Counted from the stretch's first letter, positions 22,996 through 61,700 are shown. The stretch: DNA of 64,000 nucleotides from Deltaproteobacteria bacterium (GCA_016193465.1 JACPSE010000124.1:290-64289), one strand, 5' to 3'. Numbers and translations: made by a program. The notes: generated by a model not told the origin, from the letters alone.

Positions 22996-23113
22996 GAGTC
23001 ACTCCATGAAATTGTTTATTCGATCCGTCTTCAGATACTTTTTTTCGTTTGCGGTATAACGCACGGCTGAGCCGCCCTGTCGGTCTCAAGCCGATGGTTA
23101 GGCACCCCTAAGT

Positions 23114-23162
23114 AAGCCATTGGGGTCAAGTAAGCCATTGGGGTCAAAGCCATTGGGGTCAG
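23114..23162. repeat. Triple tandem REP-like repeat (aagccattggggtca x3) adjacent to RAYT transposase
   Basis: Three consecutive copies of a 15-mer immediately 3' of the transposase gene. Confidence 0.6.
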
Positions 23163-23166
23163 ACTT

Positions 23167-25533: not shown

Positions 25534-25620
25534 CAAGCCCTTCGGGATTTCAAATAGCATATTTCAAATCTCAGATCTGAAATATGAGATCTGCAATGTG
25601 AGATTCCGAGCGGAGCGAGG
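25534..25620. repeat. About 88-bp intergenic palindrome-containing element, copy A (second copy inverted at 42751..42840)
   Basis: caagcccttcgggat..ttcaaatagca..tcagatctgaaat..tgagattccgagcggagcgagg; near-identical to the reverse complement of 42751..42840. Confidence 0.7.
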
Positions 25621-30531: not shown

Positions 30532-31623
30532 TTATTGGACAAACAATTTTTTGATCTGCTCGATCACCTCGGGTGGTTGGTCCATGCCCTCTTTAGCCAT
30601 GGTCTGCAGCTCTTCACCTTTCGTCGGGCTCACTTCTACTCGTCCCTTTTTCGCCTCGGCTACAAGGTCGGGGTCTTTCGTTGCCTTTTCGTAGGCTTCC
30701 CGCAGGATCTTAACCCGGTCCGGCGGCGTGCCCGGAGGGGCCAGAAGTGAGCGGGCCCATTCGCCGCCTAACAACATGGCTTGAGCGACACGACGGCTGG
30801 TGGCGGCGGTCTTGTATTCGTTCATGAGTTCGAAAATGGTGGGGGCGTCAGGGACGCGGCGATTCCTCTTGCGCCCACTCTGGGCGAGGAATCGAACAAA
30901 GCCTTTTTTTTGCCAGCTCAAAAAAGGCTCCCGGGTAAAGTAAGTGGAGACTGTCAATCCCATGCATATGACCTCGCCCCTTTCCATTGCCAGGGCGATC
31001 TCGCTGCTGCCTGGATAGCCCACTACGTTATCTATCTTTGCCCCTATGGTCTCCTCCAAGATTCTAGACATGACGTAGTCCGAGCTGCCAACGCCTGTCG
31101 AGCCGCACTTGGGCGGCTCCTTGGACTTGACGACATCTCCAATGGACTTATAGGGCGCATCGGCTCGCATGAATATCATCATATCGTCATTTTCCAATGA
31201 GCCGATCCAGTGGAACTTGAGAAGATCAAACTTGACCTCTTTATGCCCCGCAAGCTGGCTCAAGTAAACGTTGTTATGGGGCGTCAGGAGAGTTAAGCCA
31301 TCGGGCGTGGCCACTCCGTAGACGTAGTTGGCCGCGATCACGGATCCGGCGCCTGGCATGTTCTGGACAATCATCTCCGGGTTGCCGGGGATATATTTTC
31401 CCAAGTGGCGCGAGACAATCCGGGCTGCCCGGTCATAACCTCCGCCGGCGCTGAGGCCAACAACGATCCGAATTGTCTTGCCCTTATAGAAGGGTTCTTG
31501 GGCGCAGGCCGAAGTGACGGTTGAAAGGTTAAAATAAAGGCTTAAAGGGATGAAGAGATAAAGGGTTAAAGGGATTAAACCCTTGAACCCTGAGACCCTT
31601 AAACGCTTAAACTTACGCAGCAT
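30532..31623 (-). CDS. TTT-family periplasmic substrate-binding protein (TctC/Bug-like), copy 2; N-terminal signal region encoded by repeat sequence
   Basis: IRIVVGLSAGGGYDRAARIVSRHL...QNMPGAGSVIAANYVY; paralog of copy 1; first about 30 codons overlap the aagggtt repeat. Confidence 0.65.
   Translation of the reverse strand: MLRKFKRLRVSGFKGLIPLTLYLFIPLSLYFNLSTVTSACAQEPFYKGKTIRIVVGLSAGGGYDRAARIVSRHLGKYIPGNPEMIVQNMPGAGSVIAANYVYGVATPDGLTLLTPHNNVYLSQLAGHKEVKFDLLKFHWIGSLENDDMMIFMRADAPYKSIGDVVKSKEPPKCGSTGVGSSDYVMSRILEETIGAKIDNVVGYPGSSEIALAMERGEVICMGLTVSTYFTREPFLSWQKKGFVRFLAQSGRKRNRRVPDAPTIFELMNEYKTAATSRRVAQAMLLGGEWARSLLAPPGTPPDRVKILREAYEKATKDPDLVAEAKKGRVEVSPTKGEELQTMAKEGMDQPPEVIEQIKKLFVQ
31523..31615. 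repeat. aagggtt-type short repeat cluster, copy 1 (related copy at 41515..41565)
   Basis: ttaaagggatgaagagataaagggttaaagggattaaacccttgaaccctgagacccttaaacgcttaaac with internal inverted symmetry. Confidence 0.55.
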
Positions 31624-41516: not shown

Positions 41517-41565
41517 AAAAGGTTTAAGGGTTGAAGAGTTCAAGGGTTCAAAGGTTAAAAAAAGC
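41515..41565. repeat. aagggtt-type short repeat cluster, copy 2
   Basis: ggtttaagggttgaagagttcaagggttcaaaggttaaa resembles reverse complement of 31523..31615. Confidence 0.5.
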
Positions 41566-42750: not shown

Positions 42751-42840
42751 AGTCCTCGCTACGCTCTGAATCTCAAATCGCAGATTTCAGATCTCAGATC
42801 TGCTATTTGAAATTTGAGATTTGCCATCCCAAAGGGCTTG
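42751..42840. repeat. About 88-bp intergenic palindrome-containing element, copy B (inverted relative to 25534..25620)
   Basis: Reverse complement reads caagccctttgggatggcaaatctcaaatttcaaatagcagatctgagatctgaaatctgcgatttgagattcagagcgtagcgaggact. Confidence 0.7.
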
Positions 42841-47631: not shown

Positions 47632-47777
47632 GAATCTTGACGCCTTGCGGCGCTGGAGTGACGTTAATCGTTAATGGCTATTCGTCGGGGACACTGGGCG
47701 CAAGCGCAAACGCCGAGTAACGATTATACGAGTAACGAATCTCTTGTATCAACTGTCCAGAATCGTGTATTTTAATC

Positions 47778-47850
47778 AGAAGGCATTAGGCAATAGGCAG
47801 AAGGCAACAGGAAGATGATTTAACTCTCGCCTCACGCCTTTCGCCTGAAA
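47778..47850. repeat. Heptamer-arm hairpin element (AGGCNNG arm / complementary arm), upstream of secA
   Basis: aggcattaggcaataggcagaaggcaacagg-aagatgatttaactctcg-cctcacgcctttcgcctg. Confidence 0.6.
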
Positions 47851-47855
47851 GCTTT

Positions 47856-50800
47856 ATGCTTAACTTCATCAAAAAAATCATCGGCACGAAAAACGAGCGC
47901 GAGATCCGGCGCATTCAGCCCCTGGTGGAGCAGACTAACGCCCTCGAACCCCAATACGAGAAGCTCACCAACGCGGAGCTAAAGGCCAAGACTGACGAGT
48001 TTAAGAAAAGGATCCAGGAGGCGACCTCAGCCTGCCGCGCCGCGCTCGAAGAGAAACAAGCTCAGGCTGCGGCGGTAACCGGGGAGGAGCGCGAGGAGCT
48101 GAAGGCTGAGGCGGAGGGGATCGAGAAAGAATTGCGTCTGGCCGGAGCTAAGGTTCTCGATAGCCTCATCCCCGAGGCCTTTGCCGCAGTGCGCGAGGCC
48201 TCCAGGCGCACGATAGGGCTGCGCCATTTTGACGCCCAGCTCATTGGCGGCGTGGTCCTGCACGAGGGCAAGATCGCCGAGATGAAGACCGGTGAGGGCA
48301 AGACCCTGGTGGCCACGCTCCCGTTCTATCTGAACGCCCTTACAGGAGATGGAGTTCACCTCATCACGGTCAACGACTATCTCGCGCGCCGGGATGTCCA
48401 ATGGATGGGACCGATTTACCATCTGCTGGGTCTTTCCGTGGCCTCCATGGTGCACGAGGCGAGCTATCTCTTCGACCCTGCTTACATCACCAAGGACTAC
48501 CGTTATCTGAATCTCCGCCCCATCTCGCGCAAAGAGGCTTACCTGGCGGACATCACCTACGGGACCAACAATGAGTTTGGCTTCGATTATCTGCGCGACA
48601 ATATGAAATTTTCCCTGGAGGAATATGTCCAGCGGGATCTGAATTACGCCATCGTGGACGAGGTCGACAATATCCTGATCGACGAGGCCAGGACGCCGCT
48701 GATCATCTCTGGTCCTGCGGAGGAATCGACCGACAAGTACTACATCATCGATCGGATTATCCCCAAGCTGCAGCGCGGCGCGGTCATTCAGGGGGATGCC
48801 TCGCAGGAAAAGCGCGCCGAGATCGAGGCGCAGGGCGACTATACGGTCGATGAAAAGAGCCGGACGGTTACGCTGACCGAGACCGGAGTGGCCAAGGTCG
48901 AGCGCCTGCTCAGTATCCACAACCTCTACGATCCGCGGCAGATCGATACCCTGCACCACGTTAACCAGGCCCTTAAGGCCCACGCGCTTTTTAAACGCGA
49001 TGTCGATTACGTCATTAAGGATGGCGAGGTGATCATCGTCGACGAATTCACCGGCCGCCTCATGCCCGGAAGGCGCTGGTCCGACGGTCTCCATCAGGCG
49101 ATCGAAGCCAGAGAAGGGGTGCACATTCGCGAGGAGAATCAAACCCTGGCGACGATCACGATTCAGAACTATTTCCGCATGTACAAAAAGCTCGCCGGCA
49201 TGACCGGGACAGCCGACACCGAGGCCACGGAGTTCAAGAAGATCTATAAGCTCGACGTGGTGGTTGTCCCAACGCACAGGAAGATGATCCGCAATGATAA
49301 TGCCGATATGGTCTACCGGAGCGAGAAAGAGAAGTTCGACGCGGTAGTGGAGGAGATTGAGGCGTGCGATCAGAAAGGCCAGCCGGTTTTGGTCGGCACG
49401 ACCTCGGTGGCGAAGTCCGAGCGTCTCTCCCGGATGCTCAAGAAAAAAGGGATCAAGCATAACGTGCTGAACGCCGTAAATCACGAGGCGGAGGCGAGCA
49501 TCATCGCCCAGGCCGGTCGGTTTGAGGCCGTGACCATTGCCACTAACATGGCCGGGCGGGGGACCGATATTTTGCTCGGTGGCAATCCGGAATTTTTGGC
49601 CCGTTCGGACATGGAGAACGAATGGATCAGCCGGGCCTCCAAACTGCCGTTGCAAGGGGCCACGCGATACGAAGATGCGCTGCGGGAGCTAAGGGAGAAA
49701 TGCGAAGAGGAGATCCAGCGGGTGGAAGCGCGTTATCGCAAGGAAGCGGAGATCCACGAGCAGAAACGAGGGAATGCGCTGAAAAGGGCCACCGAGATCC
49801 AGCGCCGCTTAAGAGAGCTTTCCCCGTTTCGAGGGCTGCGGCAGGAATACGAAGAGGTCTCAACCAGCGAATTGATCGAGGCGCTGCATGAGCTGCGCGG
49901 CATTCCCGGGGGTTACCTTAAAGTTAAGGAGAAGCTGGAAGAAACCCTTTTTAAGGAAGGGGATGCGGGAGCTATCGAGGCCCGGCGCGCCTTTGAAGAG
50001 GCCCGCGACTCCTTCGGAGAATACCTGGATCGCTGGCAGCGGGGGGATGGTGAAAGACGCGAACTCATGGAGGCCCTGGACGAGAAGAGGCGCAACTACG
50101 AACAGCGTATTAACGATTACGAGGTCGGGGTGACGAACGCGGTTCTGTCGCAGGGGGAACATGCTCCCTTGGTCGCGGAATACGAGGAGACTCGCCGGGC
50201 GTATGAAGAGGCGGAGGCGCGCTGCGAGGAACTCCGGCGTCCTTACGAGGAGGCGGTTCGTGAGGCGCAGAGGAGTTACGAGGCCAAACGGCAGGAGTAT
50301 GTTCGCATAGTCGAGGAGATTCGAGAACAGTTGGAGAAGGCCCCGGAAGCCTACCGGCAGAGATACGAGGAGATCCTGGAAGGGTATAACAAGCTGTGCG
50401 CCGAAGAGAGGGAGAAGGTTATTGCCGCCGGGGGGCTCCACATCGTCGGGACAGAACGGCACGAGAGCCGCAGGATCGACAACCAGTTGCGCGGCCGTTC
50501 CGGCCGCCAGGGCGATCCGGGTTCGTCCCGTTTCTACCTTTCGCTGGAAGATGATCTCATGCGCATCTTTGGCGCGGATCGGATTCAGGGCATTATGAAC
50601 CGCTTGGGCATGGAAGAGGGCGTGCCTATCGAGCATCGCCTGGTGACCCGGGCCATAGAGAACGCCCAGAAAAAGGTCGAGGCCCATAACTTCGATATCC
50701 GCAAACACCTCCTGGAATACGATGACGTTATGAACAAGCAGCGGGAGGTGATCTACCACCAGAGGAGGGAAGTCCTCAAAGGGGAGAACCTGAAAGAGGA

Positions 50801-51452
50801 TGTCCTGGAAATGGCCCAGGGCTTGGGTGAGGATATGGTGGGGCGCTGCGTGGATAAAAATCTCCACCCCTCGGAGTGGGACCTCAGCGGGCTGCGGGAG
50901 GCGCTCTATCACCAATTTAATTTTCGTCTGGATCTGAAGCCAGAGGAACAGGAAGATTTGAGCGTCGAGAAGCTGCAGGAAATTGTTGTGGAGAAGCTAA
51001 GCCAGACCTACGAGAAGAAGGAAGAGCGGTTCAGCTCTCCTATGCTCCGGCAGTTGGAGAAGATTATCATGCTCCAGACGATCGACAGCTTGTGGAAGGA
51101 CCACCTCCTTAATATGGACCATCTGAAAGAGGGGGTTGGGTTGCGTGGTTATGGCCAGAAGAACCCTTTGCAGGAGTATCAGAAGGAAGGGTTCGAGATG
51201 TTTGAGGAGATGGTCCGCCAGATTCAAGTGGATGTCGTGCAGAAGCTCTTTACCATTGAAATGGCGCGGGAAGGCGCTTTAGAAGAGATGGAAGTTCAGC
51301 GTCGCCCGCAGAGAATTGTTTTGAGCCATGGCGGCGACGGGGAAGAGCCGGCGCGGGTGACCCCGATCAAGCGGCAGGGCAGTAAGGTTGGCAGGAACCA
51401 GCCTTGTCCCTGCGGCAGCGGCAAGAAGTACAAACGTTGTTGCGGCAAATGA
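47856..51452 (+). CDS. secA: Preprotein translocase ATPase SecA with about 270-aa expanded variable (VAR) subdomain
   Basis: Walker [42 protein letters not shown]-terminal zinc site [14 protein letters not shown]; 1198 aa with E/R/A-rich insertion about 49600..50430. Confidence 0.95.
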
Positions 51453-51490
51453 GAACGTGGCTCGTGATCGTGGTTCGTGCTCGTCGTGGG
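51453..51490. repeat. CGTG/CACGA-rich repeat, left flank of four-helix-bundle gene
   Basis: gaacgtggctcgtgatcgtggttcgtgctcgtcgtggg. Confidence 0.5.
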
Positions 51491-51532
51491 TAAGAATACT
51501 TGGCAGATCGCCCCAAAGAGGTCGCGGAATCA

Positions 51533-51889
51533 ATGAAATCCGTTGAGGACCTAGACGTCTTCAAGCTTGCCCATGAACTCACTCTAAGAATCTACAAAGT
51601 AACGGCTGATTTTCCGCGAGAAGAGAGCTTTGGCATTGTCTCGCAGATGAGACGAGCGGTAAGCTCTGTAGGAGCGAATTTAGTTGAGGGATCCATGAGG
51701 CTTAATAGCCGGGAGTTCAGGCAGTTTGTAGGTATTGCTAGGGGCTCAGCGGCTGAAGTCGGCTACCAACTACTTTTGGCCAGGGATTTGGGCTATATCT
51801 CAAATCAGGTCTACGAAGAAACTCGGTCAGACTACGACAGAGTAGGTCAGATGCTTACTTGCCTGGGTCAATCACTGGATCGTGAGTAG
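51533..51889 (+). CDS. Four-helix-bundle protein (23S rRNA intervening-sequence protein family, TIGR02436-like)
   Basis: DLDVFKLAHELTLRIYKVTADFPREE..GIVSQMRRAVSSVGANLVEG...ARGSAAEV.YQLLLARDLGYI. Confidence 0.7.
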   Translation: MKSVEDLDVFKLAHELTLRIYKVTADFPREESFGIVSQMRRAVSSVGANLVEGSMRLNSREFRQFVGIARGSAAEVGYQLLLARDLGYISNQVYEETRSDYDRVGQMLTCLGQSLDRE

Positions 51890-51950
51890 CGAGGACGAAC
51901 CACGAGCACTATCAATGAAACGAACACGAGCAACGAGCACGAACACGATT
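51890..51950. repeat. CGTG/CACGA-rich repeat, right flank (inverted relative to left flank)
   Basis: cgaggacgaaccacgagcactatcaatgaaacgaacacgagcaacgagcacgaacacga. Confidence 0.5.
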
Positions 51951-53126
51951 AAAGGTCCCGGTTTTAAATTCGCCGGCGTCGCCTGCGGCATCAAGAAAAG
52001 CAAGAAAAAGGATCTCGCCTTGATCTTTTGCGAACGGCCCGCCACGGCCGCCGCGCTTTTTACCACCAACCGGGTGAAAGCCGCCCCGGTGCTTGTCGGG
52101 ATGAGACGAATGCGCCGCGGGATCGCTCAGGCGGTAGTCGTGAACAGCGGCAACGCCAACGCCTGCACCGGCGCCAGGGGGCTTCGGGACGCCGAAGCCA
52201 CCTGCCGCCAGGTCGGTGCCCGGCTCGGGATAGACCCCGGGCTGGTGATTCCTTGCTCCACGGGTATTATCGGAGTCCCGATGCCCATGGAAAAAGTGAG
52301 GAGCGGGATCGAGAGGGCTGCTGCCAGCCTTTCGGCCGATTCTTTTTCACATGCCGCCGAGGCGATCCTTACGACCGATCGTTTTATCAAGGTTGCCTCC
52401 GCTACCTGTTCGCTGAAGGGCAAAAAGGTCGTGCTTGCAGGAATGGTGAAAGGGGCGGGAATGATTGCCCCTAACATGGCCACCATGCTGGCCTATATTC
52501 TCACCAATGCGGCAGTGGAGCATCGTAGTCTCCGTAGTATCCTGCGCCGCTCGGCGGAAGAGAGCTTCAACCGTGTCACGGTGGATGGGGATGTGAGCAC
52601 GAACGACACGGTTCTCTTTCTGGCCAACGGCCTTGCCGGGAACTCCCCGGTAAGGCGGGCAAGCAGGGAGGAAAGAGTTCTCGTCAGAGCGGCTCAGGAG
52701 CTCATGAAGGAGCTTGCCATCAAGCTGGTCGAAGACGGGGAGGGAGCGACCAAGGTCGTTGAGGTTTTTGTCGAGGGCGCCCGCACTGTGGCCGAGGCCA
52801 AAAAGGTTGCCTTCTCTGTTGGCAATTCCAAGCTTGTCAAAACCGCGTTTTTCGGATCCGACCCCAATTTTGGCCGCATCATGGCGGCTATCGGTTATGC
52901 GGGGGTGCCAATCCGCCCTGAACGGATCGACATTGCCTTTGACAACGTTACGGTAGTGAAGAGCGGTGTAGGGATGGCGTCCAGAGAAAAAAAGGCGGCC
53001 CGTGTCTTAAGGCACCCCTCGTTGCGGCTGAAAATAGACCTGCATCAGGGAAGGCGGTCGGCCGCTGTGTGGACCTCGGATTTAAGCTACGAATACGTGC
53101 GTATTAACTCGGCTTATAGAACGTGA
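51915..53126 (+). CDS. argJ: Bifunctional glutamate N-acetyltransferase / amino-acid acetyltransferase ArgJ
   Basis: ATMLAYILTNAAV self-cleavage site region and ArgJ body; start chosen after repeat-encoded leader of ORF. Confidence 0.85.
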   Translation: MKRTRATSTNTIKGPGFKFAGVACGIKKSKKKDLALIFCERPATAAALFTTNRVKAAPVLVGMRRMRRGIAQAVVVNSGNANACTGARGLRDAEATCRQVGARLGIDPGLVIPCSTGIIGVPMPMEKVRSGIERAAASLSADSFSHAAEAILTTDRFIKVASATCSLKGKKVVLAGMVKGAGMIAPNMATMLAYILTNAAVEHRSLRSILRRSAEESFNRVTVDGDVSTNDTVLFLANGLAGNSPVRRASREERVLVRAAQELMKELAIKLVEDGEGATKVVEVFVEGARTVAEAKKVAFSVGNSKLVKTAFFGSDPNFGRIMAAIGYAGVPIRPERIDIAFDNVTVVKSGVGMASREKKAARVLRHPSLRLKIDLHQGRRSAAVWTSDLSYEYVRINSAYRT

Positions 53127-57960: not shown

Positions 57961-58066
57961 ATAGGCGAATAGGCAATAGCAATCAGCGGACTTAGGCGTG
58001 AGGCGGTAGGCGTCAGGCAACAGTTGAGCCTTTTCTATCGCCTATTGCCTGATGCCTGTTGCCTTC
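57961..58066. repeat. Heptamer-arm hairpin element between gatC and rnhB
   Basis: ataggcgaataggcaatagc...gcgtgaggcggtaggcgtcaggcaacag-ttgagcc-ttttctatcgcctattgcctgatgcctgttgcc. Confidence 0.6.
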
Positions 58067-58118: not shown

Positions 58119-58961
58119 ATGAAGGAAAGTTGGAATAGCGCCGAACTGGAGGAAGAAGCCTATTCTCGCGGCTTTAAGTGTGTCGCCGGGCTGGACGAAG
58201 TAGGCAGGGGACCGTGGGCGGGTCCGGTGGTGGCCGCCGCTGTGGTTCTCCCTCCGGGTGTGAGCCATCCAGAGATCAAAGACTCGAAACTCCTTACCGC
58301 TAAGAAACGGGAGGAACTAACGATTTGGATTAGAGAGCGGGCCGTGGCGTGGGGATTAGGGGTTGTTGAGTCCGAAGAGATCGACCGGATGAATATCCTG
58401 AAGGCGAGCCTTCTGGCGATGTCCCTCGCTTTTAAGCGCCTCAATCCGCTCCCGGATTACCTGCTGATTGACGGGCCGCATAAAATTCCGTTGGAGTTCC
58501 TAAGGGCAGAAGAAGCCAGGCAACAGGCAGAAGACAGGCGAGAGGCAACAGGCAACAGGCTAGAGCCGGGAGGCGACAGGAGGGAGGAAGATGATTTAGC
58601 TCTCGTCTCAAGCCTCACGCCTTCCGCCTCATGCCTTTCCCCTCACGCCTCGCGCCTCACGCCTCATGCCTTGCCCTTCCAGAAGGCGATCAAGAAGGGC
58701 GACCGGTTGTCTATTTCTATTGGCGCGGCCTCTATCGTGGCCAAGGTGGCGCGGGATGAGATAATGAAAAAATATGACAGCCTGTATCCTGAATACGGAT
58801 TTAGGCAGCATAAGGGCTACGGATCCCCTGCGCACCTGGCAGCGCTCCGTCGCTATGGCCCGGCGCCGATTCACCGCAGGAGCTTCAGGCCGGTGCGGGA
58901 ATGTCTCAGCTTACCAGCCTCCCAGCTTCCTAGCCTCCTAGCTTGGAGGCGAGAAGGCTAG
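58119..58961 (+). CDS. rnhB: Ribonuclease HII carrying an in-frame about 56-aa low-complexity insertion derived from a heptamer hairpin element
   Basis: GLDEVGRGPWAGPVV, LLIDG, KGD..S.SIGAASIVAKV, GYGS motifs; insert between LIDG and KGD (58514..58676); RBS aaaggag before ATG 58119. Confidence 0.85.
   Translation: MKESWNSAELEEEAYSRGFKCVAGLDEVGRGPWAGPVVAAAVVLPPGVSHPEIKDSKLLTAKKREELTIWIRERAVAWGLGVVESEEIDRMNILKASLLAMSLAFKRLNPLPDYLLIDGPHKIPLEFLRAEEARQQAEDRREATGNRLEPGGDRREEDDLALVSSLTPSASCLSPHASRLTPHALPFQKAIKKGDRLSISIGAASIVAKVARDEIMKKYDSLYPEYGFRQHKGYGSPAHLAALRRYGPAPIHRRSFRPVRECLSLPASQLPSLLAWRREG
58514..58676. repeat. Heptamer-arm hairpin element inserted in-frame within rnhB
   Basis: aggcaacaggcagaagacaggcgagaggcaacaggcaacaggc...ggaggaagatgatttagctctcg...cctcacgccttccgcctcatgcctttcccctcacgcctcgcgcctcacgcctcatgcc; centre matches 47778 element. 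Confidence 0.7.
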
Positions 58962-59340: not shown

Positions 59341-59425
59341 AGAAGGCGTGAGGCGTGAGGCATGAGGCGCGAGGCGTGAGTAAAAACTTCTTCTGGTTGC
59401 CTGTTGCCTTTCGCCTCAAGCCTAA
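59341..59425. repeat. Heptamer-arm hairpin element between yraN and serS
   Basis: aggcgtgaggcgtgaggcatgaggcgcgaggcgtgag-taaaaacttcttctg-gttgcctgttgcctttcgcctcaagcct. Confidence 0.6.
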
Positions 59426-60708: not shown

Positions 60709-60852
60709 AAAAACAGTTTTGAGTGGTGAGTTTTTAGTTCTTAGTTGACAGAAGTTTCCTTTCAACTCAAAACTAATAACCTAAAATTAAAAACTTAAAT
60801 GTTGAGCTGGAGCCTATTTACTATTGACTATTTACTGTTTACTGTAATTGCA

Positions 60853-60941
60853 GGAGGGGTGGCCGAGCGGTTTAAGGCACCGGTCTTGAAAACCGGCGTC
60901 CACTGCGTGGACCGCGAGTTCGAATCTCGCCCCCTCCGCCA
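60853..60941 (+). tRNA. tRNA-Ser (anticodon TGA)
   Basis: GGAGGGGTGGCCGAGCGGTTTAAGGCACCGGTCTTGAAAACCGG + long variable arm + GAGTTCGAATCTCGCCCCCTCCGCCA; near-identical architecture to E. coli tRNA-Ser(UGA). Confidence 0.9.
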
Positions 60942-60955
60942 CTAGTTTGGATAAA

Positions 60956-61015
60956 ACGTGTCCCGTGTTCGTGATTCGTGTTCGTACGAGCACGAGAAAC
61001 GAGCACGATCACGGC
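60956..61015. repeat. CGTG/CACGA-rich inverted repeat between the two tRNA-Ser genes
   Basis: cgtgttcgtgattcgtgttcgtacgagcacgagaaacgagcacgatcacgg; same family as flanks of four-helix-bundle gene. Confidence 0.5.
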
Positions 61016-61029
61016 TTTTACTTCACCAC

Positions 61030-61122
61030 GGAGAGATGGCCGAGCGGTCGAAGGCGCACGCCTGCTAAGCGTGTGTACCCCTTAAAAGGGTACCGAGGGT
61101 TCGAATCCCTCTCTCTCCGCCA
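61030..61122 (+). tRNA. tRNA-Ser (anticodon GCT)
   Basis: GGAGAGATGGCCGAGCGGTCGAAGGCGCACGCCTGCTAAGCGTGTG + long variable arm + GGGTTCGAATCCCTCTCTCTCCGCCA. Confidence 0.9.
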
Positions 61123-61158: not shown

Positions 61159-61584
61159 CTAGCGCCGCCCGGTCACGGAGGCGTGGATAGCTCTCCACCT
61201 CTTCAGTTGTTCGGGGGAAAGGAGCCTGTTAACTTTTCTTTCTGTGGCAATTTCGCCGACCCTCAAATTTGTCTGGATGTCAGCTTTCTCTCTTAACCTT
61301 TTTTCAATCTGCGCCGGATCAGCTTCCTTCTCGGTAAGATCCTCCAATTCGTCGTCGATAAGGACAATCTTTGCGCTGGCTAGGCGGCGCTGTCTAAATT
61401 GTTGCTTCCAAATGGCACTGATCTCGCTTACCTGATTGTCGGTCAATTTCAGATCATCCCTTACATCTATGATTAGCGGGACAGGGTCCGCATAGGCCAC
61501 AGTAGAAAAGCTGATAGCTAAGAGCTGACAGCTAAGAGCAGAGAGGGCGAGAGAGAGCAGAAAAACCTTTAAACGGCTTTGCAT
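61159..61584 (-). CDS. Periplasmic LTXXQ-motif (Spy/CpxP-like) protein, copy 1; signal peptide encoded by heptamer repeat
   Basis: Signal peptide; LTDNQVSEI and LSPEQLKRW motifs. Confidence 0.65.
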   Translation of the reverse strand: MQSRLKVFLLSLALSALSCQLLAISFSTVAYADPVPLIIDVRDDLKLTDNQVSEISAIWKQQFRQRRLASAKIVLIDDELEDLTEKEADPAQIEKRLREKADIQTNLRVGEIATERKVNRLLSPEQLKRWRAIHASVTGRR

Positions 61585-61589
61585 CGTAA

Positions 61590-61700
61590 TAGCTGAAAGC
61601 TAAGGGCTGAAGGCTAATAGCTAAGAGCGAATAGCTGAGGGCTAAGAGCTTAGACAAACGGCTCTCGGCTCTAGACCCTAAGCTCTAGAGCTGTTTTTCT
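61590..61700. repeat. Heptamer tandem repeats (AGCTNAG/GGCTNAR type) between the two LTXXQ genes
   Basis: agctgaaagctaagggctgaaggctaatagctaagagcgaatagctgagggctaagagcttagac; 7-nt periodicity. Confidence 0.6.

Follow-up and report, generated by a model that had tools for sequence, protein, structure and literature searches.

A four-helix-bundle gene of the 23S rRNA intervening-sequence type between complementary repeat arms in a secA-argJ spacer, with gene-less hairpins of the same kind

The spacer between secA and argJ in a deltaproteobacterial genome holds an inserted module in which a short leader and a gene for a four-helix-bundle (4HB) protein are enclosed by two arms, G-rich on the 5′ side and C-rich on the 3′ side. 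We analysed it within a stretch of 64,000 nt, hereafter the window, and compared it with related loci from other genomes. The module is one instance of a unit that recurs across phyla, genuine intervening sequences (IVSs) of 23S rRNA included. Our preferred reading, to which we assign a probability of roughly 0.6, is that it is a selfish 4HB module of the IVS type, which rides in sense orientation in the secA-argJ operon, forms a stem of the RNase III type and decays to gene-less hairpins.

secA, the 4HB gene and argJ share one direction of transcription, and the secA stop codon abuts the left arm (Table 1). The gap between secA and argJ is ~460 nt long and contains a single ORF, on the same strand; a promoter scan of positions 51453-51533 revealed no sigma-70-like promoter. 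The argJ ATG is placed between the proximal and the distal copy of the right arm, and there is no alternative in-frame start before the conserved KGPGFKFAG. As this is the sole usable argJ start, ArgJ residues 1-12 (MKRTRATSTNTI) are encoded by the arm, the distal copy of which lies inside about the first 12 argJ codons. Arm-encoded ArgJ N-termini like this one were found also in three related loci (L044, L055 and L130). None of the window ORFs scanned encodes a transposase, and the arms enclose no gene besides the 4HB gene. The element sits between secA and argJ rather than in an rRNA gene; two tRNAs are the sole Rfam matches of the window. A 10-nt direct repeat, ATCAATGAAA, is found at the start codons of both the 4HB gene and argJ. 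We considered it as a possible duplication and set this aside; the chance of one such match in 600 nt is ~0.2 (a rough estimate), and the relatives lack it.

Table 1. Features of the window, with positions counted from its first nucleotide
Feature	Position	Strand	Remarks
secA, upstream gene	47856..51452	+	1198 aa; Pfam SecA domains, E 1e-123
Left (5′) arm	51452..51489	+	About five tandem 6-7-nt units of TCGTG type; G>C on the sense strand
Leader, left arm to start codon	51490..51532	+	SD-like AAAGAGG at 51515-51521
4HB protein gene	51533..51889	+	118 aa; S23p / 23S rRNA IVS protein family; PF05635 match
Right (3′) arm, proximal copy	51888..51910	+	CACGA type; pairs with 51463-51485; duplex -33.9 kcal/mol
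Right (3′) arm, distal copy	51917..51949	+	CACGA type; pairs with 51464-51489; duplex -34.0 kcal/mol
argJ, downstream gene	51915..53126	+	Pfam ArgJ, E 8e-146; ATG at 51915
tRNA-Ser(TGA)	60853-60941		Flanks the solo hairpin
Solo CGTG-type hairpin	60956..61015	+	Left arm and right arm head to head, no gene
tRNA-Ser(GCT)	61030-61122		Flanks the solo hairpin
AGGCGTG/AGGCAAC-type array	47781-47846, 57961-58064, 58511-58676, 59343-59423		Repeat scans
GTTAATCG-type array	47655-47745		Repeat scans
AATCTCA/AGATCTG-type array	25542-25609, 42769-42821		Repeat scans
TAAAGGG-type array	31535-31612		Repeat scans
GTTTTGAG-type array	60715-60800		Repeat scans
AGCTAAG-type array	61509-61654		Repeat scans

A sequence-only reading of this DNA had proposed a 4HB gene of the 23S rRNA IVS type with inverted CGTG-rich flanks, and the gene and the inversion were both borne out. 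The description of the flanks needs two corrections: the right arm is double, and its distal copy falls within the start region of argJ. TRF reports a period of 13 (= 6+7) for the left arm. Inverted-repeat pairs I1-I6 are located at the left arm, where I2 joins it to the proximal right copy (20 nt, 90% complementary) and I1, I4 and I6 join it to the distal copy; another pair spans 12 nt with 100% complementarity. The arms pair with each other in the minimum-free-energy fold of positions 51445-51960 (z -3.7), and the duplex of left and right arm has an energy of -41.8 kcal/mol, versus -25.5 +/- 3.9 for shuffled arms. At this length, the arms are predicted to be able to form a stem of ~30 bp, which would be long enough for RNase III.

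The profile search assigned the product of the ORF to PF05635 (23S_rRNA_IVP, E 8e-36) and to TIGR02436 (E 1e-31), both above the curated cut-offs. An exact look-up of the protein sequence returned nothing; a homology search recovered the protein of the source MAG. The family is very large and best known from the ORF that some 23S rRNA intervening sequences carry; structures have been solved, but to our knowledge no function has been established. Two crystal structures, 2GSC (XCC0516, E 1e-17) and 2RLD, match the window protein. Its AF2 (AlphaFold) model comprises four helices with a pLDDT of 93, and Foldseek aligned it with TM 0.85-0.88 to 2GSC and 2RLD, both of which are pentameric, and next, at ~0.8, to Avd of the diversity-generating retroelements (DGRs; 8UB7/4DWL). 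The protein does not reach the Avd equivalog level, with 20.9 bits for the Avd model versus a cut-off of 80; PHROGs gave a weak Avd match only, and no PADLOC model matched. Eight residues (Q38, R41, S45, N49, E52, G53, S72 and E75) do not vary among 23 diverse members of the family, one of them the rRNA-borne protein, and they extend the earlier-noted motif RxxxSxxxNxxE (PMC3936711). Because these residues are alike in subtypes with different arms, any specificity for the arms would lie elsewhere in the protein, the charge of which is, by our own count, roughly neutral and not basic; both points count against the preferred reading. The four-helix fold and the polar motif also prompted us to consider membership in the HEPN superfamily; this was dropped, as the 4HB family is absent from the HEPN survey paper.

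To compare the secA-argJ spacing in relatives, as the sequence-only reading had proposed, we used a metagenome scan with ArgJ, which provided 80 loci, with ArgJ 67-83% identical in the closer relatives. The synteny of secA and argJ is kept in almost all of the 80 loci, and their adjacency is conserved in about 60 related ones. Among the closer relatives the content of the spacer varies. In L051, L052, L060 and L062 it is short (30-60 nt) and free of arrays. Other loci carry gene-less hairpins of another type: GTCAAT in L043 and L050, GAGGATC in L046 and L059, AGGCGTG in L058 and AGCxxTC in L044. L049 has CGTG arms around a non-coding core of 90 nt, L055 retains, between CGTG arms, the window's 4HB gene as far as codon ~22, and in L045, L054 and L056 the spacer is occupied by another 4HB gene (37-40% identical) with GTTAAT-type arms. 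These states are scattered on the ArgJ tree, and sister genomes differ. L059 and L062, which come from one sample, align with mostly identical flanks and are distinguished by a precise indel of a 57-nt hairpin. Thus, the module is present sporadically among close relatives, with empty, otherwise filled and decayed sites in L043-L062 and a filled one in L130, and the site is insertion-polymorphic with quick turnover. That gene and arms form a small insertion element is upheld by the empty and otherwise filled spacers, in so far as they were inserted as one unit; the element is apparently not a classical transposon, as the inspected boundaries lack duplications and its termini are not conserved.

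The sequence-only reading had named CGTG repeats at this site without the 4HB gene as evidence against such an element. They are formally present in part, in L049, L044 and L055, none of which has an intact 4HB gene. However, the ~22 codons retained in L055 make loss of the cargo a better explanation for the gene-less CGTG sites than independence of repeat and gene. Internal deletion removes the 4HB gene, and what stays behind is a gene-less hairpin, as in the spacer of the two tRNA-Ser genes of the window. The hairpin in that spacer had been noted in the sequence-only reading as a third cluster of the motif, and it proved to be exactly that: at least four TCGTG/CACGA pentamers per 60 nt occur at three places only in the 64 kb, namely both flanks of the 4HB gene and the tRNA-Ser spacer, where the dense stretch covers 60945-61028. 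The hairpin aligns in register, first with the left arm (26/31) and then at once with the distal right arm (25/29), and its fold has an energy of -33 kcal/mol (z -4.3). Its 36-nt core recurs exactly in L128, a different locus from another sample, which carries a 4HB gene for a protein 84% identical in a ubiD-like/ubiA-like context (as read from the translated flanks). This exact recurrence implies that the solo form, besides arising by decay, is a conserved repeat dispersed to other loci.

A survey of the window that combined tandem-repeat scans, inverted-repeat scans and folding revealed at least six further types of gene-less arrays besides CGTG (Table 1), ~seven repeat types overall. Three of these (CGTG, GTTAATCG and the AGC type) flank a 4HB gene either here or in a close relative. 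The window has one 4HB gene only versus ~seven repeat types, which counts against the preferred reading. One hairpin of 165 nt sits inside rnhB.

The arrangement is not a peculiarity of the secA-argJ spacer. A protein scan with one genome per species provided 42 homologous loci, from Deltaproteobacteria-like MAGs, Binatia, Nitrospirota, Acidobacteriota, Bacteroidales, Campylobacterota, Planctomycetota, Patescibacteria and archaeal bins, and by inspection nearly all of them have a short-period array before the gene and a complementary array after it. To quantify this, we took the best local alignment between the upstream flank and the reverse complement of the downstream flank, with control pairs drawn from the same loci. 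For 29 of 41 loci the score was above the highest of the 139 control pairs, and the mean was 30.4 versus 16.0 +/- 2.4. Thirteen loci have arm units of 7 nt, 12 have units of 6 nt and three have units of 8 nt; the unit sequence varies widely, with examples such as TCGTG/CACGA, CCGTG/CACGG, GTGTCAG/CTGACAC, GGGGTCA/TGACCCC, GGATTTG/CAAATCC and GACTGGT/ACCAGTC; there are more than 10 unrelated units across the family, with no conservation of terminal sequence among its members. G exceeds C in the upstream arm, on the sense strand of the gene, in 24 of 28 loci (p 1.8e-4). The features kept across the family are complementarity, a periodicity of 6-8 nt and strand polarity only, and not the arm sequence. 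The polarity argues that a single-stranded species matters, which may be either RNA or single-stranded DNA; the energies of sense and antisense duplexes were alike (p 0.31; 130-nt flanks, 41 loci) in what is a noisy measure, with controls at -58 +/- 18 kcal/mol.

In 37 of 42 loci the 4HB gene has the same direction as the gene upstream, and in 33 of 36 the same as the gene downstream, mostly across gaps of <130 nt. On the cyanobacterial plasmids L124 and L125 it is antisense to both neighbours, so read-through from a host operon is not universal. Closed plasmids of cultured cyanobacteria share the design: Nostoc has arms of GTAGGGA x8 / TCCCTAC x5 and of GGGGAAA / TTTCCCC, and in Pseudanabaena an AAAAGCT x15 array is found at the 4HB gene. 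As isolates of Nostoc, Pseudanabaena and Xanthomonas (see below) all have it, the design is no artefact of metagenome assembly.

The sequence of the arm unit tracks the 4HB subtype and not the host or the site. In a Bacteroidales locus (L028), three 4HB paralogues lie no more than 8 kb apart and have arms of the GGTGGAAA, GACTGGT/GATTGGT and GTTGTTTATTTGTTGA types, respectively, and two paralogues in L045 have GTTAATCG-type and AGCCATC-type arms. Conversely, GTGTCAG-type arms accompany one protein clade in Nitrospirota, Nitrospinota, Thermodesulfobacteriota and archaeal bins. The sharing of arm 5-mers increases with protein identity, being ~0.26 at identities of at least 65% versus 0.02-0.06 below that (Mantel p about 0.001).

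Strong purifying selection acts on the 4HB protein and also on the left arm. Against close homologues, the 4HB gene has pN 0.10-0.22 and pS 0.59-0.89. The comparison with L130, which has the orthologous secA-4HB-argJ arrangement, is informative for the arms too: the pS values of secA, argJ and the 4HB gene are 0.63, 0.68 and 0.46, respectively, with a pN of 0.06 for the 4HB gene, while the left arm is identical at 35 of 37 positions (95%) and arm plus leader at 68 of 80. In the right arms the motif is retained, with changes in copy number and arrangement. Four loci that have reached synonymous saturation with respect to the window (L001, L003, L005 and L006) retain the TCGTG motif as well. Complementarity alone would permit compensatory drift, and so the conservation of the motif points to sequence-specific recognition.

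The link to rRNA intervening sequences was found directly on plasmid p2 of Azospirillum lipoferum 4B (L126), where a 4HB ORF lies inside 23S rRNA (Rfam LSU, 2529 bits). Its arms are GAGGACG-GATGACA-GAGGACG-GAGGACA upstream and the complementary CCGTCCT-CTGTCTT-CTGTCAT-CCGTCTT downstream, with the G-rich arm at the 5′ side. This is a genuine 23S rRNA intervening sequence, and its design is the same as that in the window. In the Coxiella IVS, a terminal stem of 28 bp is cut inside by RNase III at a site where the heptamer GACAGAT occurs three times in tandem, and present or past mobility of this ORF-bearing element is a long-standing idea (PMC4990558).

A second link leads to the published heptamer repeats. 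The X. campestris genome has 186 GGGAATC sites, 70 of them in convergent pairs, and their function was left open (Rehm et al., PMC4692102). We found that an XCC0516 homologue of X. campestris is flanked by accB and accC, to which it is co-oriented, with an upstream arm of GGGAATC-GGGAGTG-GAGAATC-GGGAATC and a C-rich complement, CCCATTCCCCATTCTCGACTCCCTATTCCC, downstream. The upstream arm is listed in the supplementary table as repeat 15, between bccP (XCC0517) and XCC0516, and XCC0516 is unmentioned in the main text (PMC4692102). A search of literature largely outside the subscription journals returned no paper linking PF05635 to repeat arrays.

Under the preferred reading of a selfish IVS-type module, the element, apparently having no promoter of its own, would be transcribed by read-through from secA. 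By analogy with the homologous rRNA elements of Coxiella and Leptospira, the arms would form a stem of ~30 bp in the transcript and RNase III would cleave it; this cleavage would free the 4HB mRNA as a panhandle and uncouple the secA and argJ messages. The 4HB pentamer may recognise its own arm repeats, as suggested by the co-variation of arm and protein and by the Avd-like fold, Avd being an RNA-binding protein and the only characterised structural relative. Recognition of this kind would account for arm sequences that are conserved and co-vary with the protein. Its role may be to regulate or protect the RNA of the module itself; the alternative, to which we give a rather low probability, is that the protein propagates the hairpins.

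The strongest competitor, though in our judgement a doubtful one, is a partnership like that of REP sequences and RAYT, where the 4HB protein would act in trans as the maker, spreader or maintainer of all hairpins of its type, with the gene-flanking copy as master and the solo copies as products. RAYT is a Y1 (HUH) transposase with known chemistry, and REP sequences are fixed 20-40-mers. In both systems a single small gene lies between inverted copies of a repeat, and the repeat is also found dispersed without the gene, here as the tRNA-Ser hairpin and its core in L128. Further points speak for such a partnership: one of the 186 GGGAATC sites abuts XCC0516, the homologue of which lies between arms of that type; the arm motif is conserved past synonymous saturation and co-varies with the protein clade; the invariant polar motif Q-R-S-N-E-G...S-E resembles a functional site; and three of the ~seven repeat types of the window are known to flank a 4HB gene. 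Unlike RAYT, however, the 118-aa helical bundle has no recognised catalytic fold and no known nuclease or recombinase chemistry, its arms are tandem arrays of 6-8-nt units, and neither PADLOC nor the weak Avd match of PHROGs hints at such an activity. Moreover, L055 demonstrates that some solo arms arise by decay in place.

It is improbable that the element is a classical DNA transposon or MITE, in which the CGTG repeats would be terminal inverted repeats, as the sequence-only reading had suggested, and would be bound by a transposase encoded elsewhere, with the 4HB gene as a passenger. Inverted termini, filled and empty sites among relatives and a short gene-less form would all suit such an element. 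Yet no target-site duplication was seen at any inspected boundary (those of the window element, the solo hairpin and the L059/L062 indel), and no transposase lies between the arms, which in each of the loci examined enclose the 4HB gene and no other. The termini are arrays of short tandem units that differ by subtype and vary even between orthologous copies (the right arm here versus L130), and double-stranded DNA repeats would not need a strand polarity relative to the gene. Nor does the 4HB gene behave like cargo, as the same gene is found in every family member across phyla.

Less probable still is a non-autonomous retroelement, where the Avd-like 4HB protein would bind the folded arm RNA and recruit a reverse transcriptase encoded elsewhere, and the module or its bare stem would be copied to new sites. 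The closest fold with a known function is indeed Avd, which shares with the 4HB protein the four-helix bundle and the pentameric state and binds RNA and reverse transcriptase in the DGR RNP, and the module lies in sense orientation inside operons. Against this, sequence similarity to Avd is marginal, its score being far below the cut-off; no reverse transcriptase was found among the ORFs scanned or the called genes of the looked-up loci; and the neighbours are secA and argJ, with no template/variable repeat pairs adjoining. As to slippage-prone simple repeats that accumulate in spacers with incidental pairing and no function, we give this explanation almost no credence: in many bacteria no short tandem repeat is commoner than the heptamer, for which polymerase slippage has been proposed as the source (PMC4679880; PMC4692102), but the complementarity is a specific property of the paired flanks of a single gene family, the arms have a strand polarity, and the left arm is conserved at 95% where synonymous sites differ by 46-68%.

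The design appears to connect the ORF-bearing rRNA intervening sequences with the unexplained heptamer repeats of bacteria. We know of no accepted origin or role for heptanucleotide tandem repeats, and this connection ties two puzzles together, the function of PF05635/TIGR02436 and the origin and role of the repeats. A broader proposal, which we put forward tentatively as a possibility, is that 4HB (S23p) genes are the master copies of the heptamer hairpins overrepresented in many bacteria (the cyanobacterial ones, GGGAATC of Xanthomonas and the types of this MAG), each subtype recognising and propagating or maintaining its own unit in a manner resembling RAYT and REP, possibly with chemistry at the RNA level. 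The design may also explain the reported association of the PF05635 family with cas loci. For annotators, it is of practical concern that such hairpins can invade coding sequence, here rnhB and argJ.

Among known systems, Rickettsia palindromic elements, which are short hairpin repeats inserting into genes, and MITE-like hairpins share with the present ones an in-frame tolerance inside coding sequence (here rnhB and the ArgJ N-terminus). They differ from the elements described here, which are tandem arrays of many sequence types per genome and have a protein-coding master form. The published heptamers, i.e. the cyanobacterial ones, Xanthomonas GGGAATC and Nostoc GGGGA(T/C)T (PMC4692102) and TAACTGA of Beggiatoaceae (PMC4679880), are intergenic tandem 7-nt units like the window arrays, often in convergent pairs and with a copy number that varies between close relatives. 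Those papers (PMC4692102; PMC4679880) treat them as free-standing G-quadruplex or translational elements, with no link to a 4HB gene in the text searched, whereas the repeats described here serve as arms, either in a module with a gene or in the derivative that has lost it.

The closest counterparts are the 23S rRNA intervening sequences with an S23p ORF, as in Leptospira, Coxiella burnetii, Brucella and Azospirillum. They share with the window element the PF05635/TIGR02436 family, an ORF in sense orientation, complementary termini of ~7-nt units with the G-rich arm at the 5′ side, a sporadic distribution and decay of the ORF. At the level of sequence, the window element has every feature of the rRNA IVS family except the location in rRNA. 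The host transcript here is the secA-argJ mRNA operon and not helix 9, 25 or 45 of 23S rRNA. In contrast to the Coxiella ORF, which was reported to be decaying and untranslated, the window protein is under strong purifying selection, and, unlike in the 23S rRNA intervening sequences, the distal arm has been recruited here as coding sequence of the downstream gene.

Repeat hairpins of the kind that flanks four-helix-bundle (4HB) genes were also found within coding sequences (see the table). A heptamer hairpin lies in frame within rnhB (RNase HII), to whose product it contributes about 55 extra residues, and the Pfam RNase_HII match falls into two stretches, one on each side of the insertion. 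At argJ, the CACGA arm encodes the N-terminus of the protein, in its first ~12 codons (MKRTRATSTNTI). This arm-derived N-terminus is common to the relatives with CGTG-type arms (L044, L055 and L130), and ArgJ begins MPI(I/L)R in relatives whose spacers are of other kinds. SecA (1198 aa) carries a Glu/Arg/Ala-rich insertion of ~250 aa within its second P-loop domain, which is kept in the relatives L045, L054 and L130; the insertion in the window's SecA showed no sign of an origin from repeat arrays.

The window contains at least 12 hairpins or arrays that lack a gene and are built from 6-8-nt units. They represent about six sequence types besides CGTG, and the majority occupy spacers adjoining start and stop codons. 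The AGGCGTG/AGGCAAC type accounts for four of them; no cognate 4HB gene was found for this type. Separately, an 18-nt unit (AAGTAAGCCATTGGGGTC) is repeated three times in tandem in the spacer between two minus-strand ORFs; this array is not of the hairpin type.

Coordinates of repeat arrays and associated genes
Feature	Locus	Position	Strand	Remark
Gene-less hairpins/arrays	window	25542-25609, 31535-31612, 41521-41556, 42769-42821, 47655-47745, 47781-47846
Gene-less hairpins/arrays, continued	window	57961-58064, 58907-58960, 59343-59423, 60715-60843, 61509-61654
18-nt tandem array	window	23110-23163
secA	window	47856-51452
CACGA arm in argJ	window	51915-51950
rnhB ORF	window	58059/58119-58961	+
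AGGCAAC... / ...CTCACGC hairpin	window	58511-58676		165 nt; in frame within rnhB
4HB paralogues	L028	482-5994		Bacteroidales MAG
4HB gene with solo hairpin and CACGA arrays upstream	L128	300-930		ubiD-like/ubiA-like locus
accB-4HB-accC	L131	1420-1880		XCC0516-type gene between GGGAATC-type arms

The Bacteroidales MAG (L028) has three 4HB paralogues in 8 kb (35-51% identical, the first broken by a run of N), each with a different arm unit. At L128, the 4HB gene follows a complete solo hairpin (two arms joined head to head) and additional CACGA arrays whose orientation is 'wrong'. Nesting or stacking of arrays is thus possible, and L014, L030 and L037 show it too.

In the Nostoc edaphicum (L124) and Calothrix (L125) plasmids, the 4HB gene runs antisense to the genes on either side of it (nrdB/nrdA and secretion genes, respectively), in contrast to the sense orientation in 37 of the 42 other loci; despite its antisense placement, the L124 gene has the G-rich arm at its 5′ side. 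In Xanthomonas campestris (L131) the accBC operon houses the XCC0516-type gene; PMC4692102 lists the array upstream of this gene as repeat 15 in its supplementary table. A Pseudanabaena plasmid (L123) shows the order cas6-4HB-cas4, with AAAAGCT x15 upstream of the 4HB gene. Earlier reports associated 23S_rRNA_IVP with cas loci (PMC3936711, PMC10910872), associations that may reflect the operon-riding habit of 4HB genes or repeat arrays mistaken for CRISPRs.
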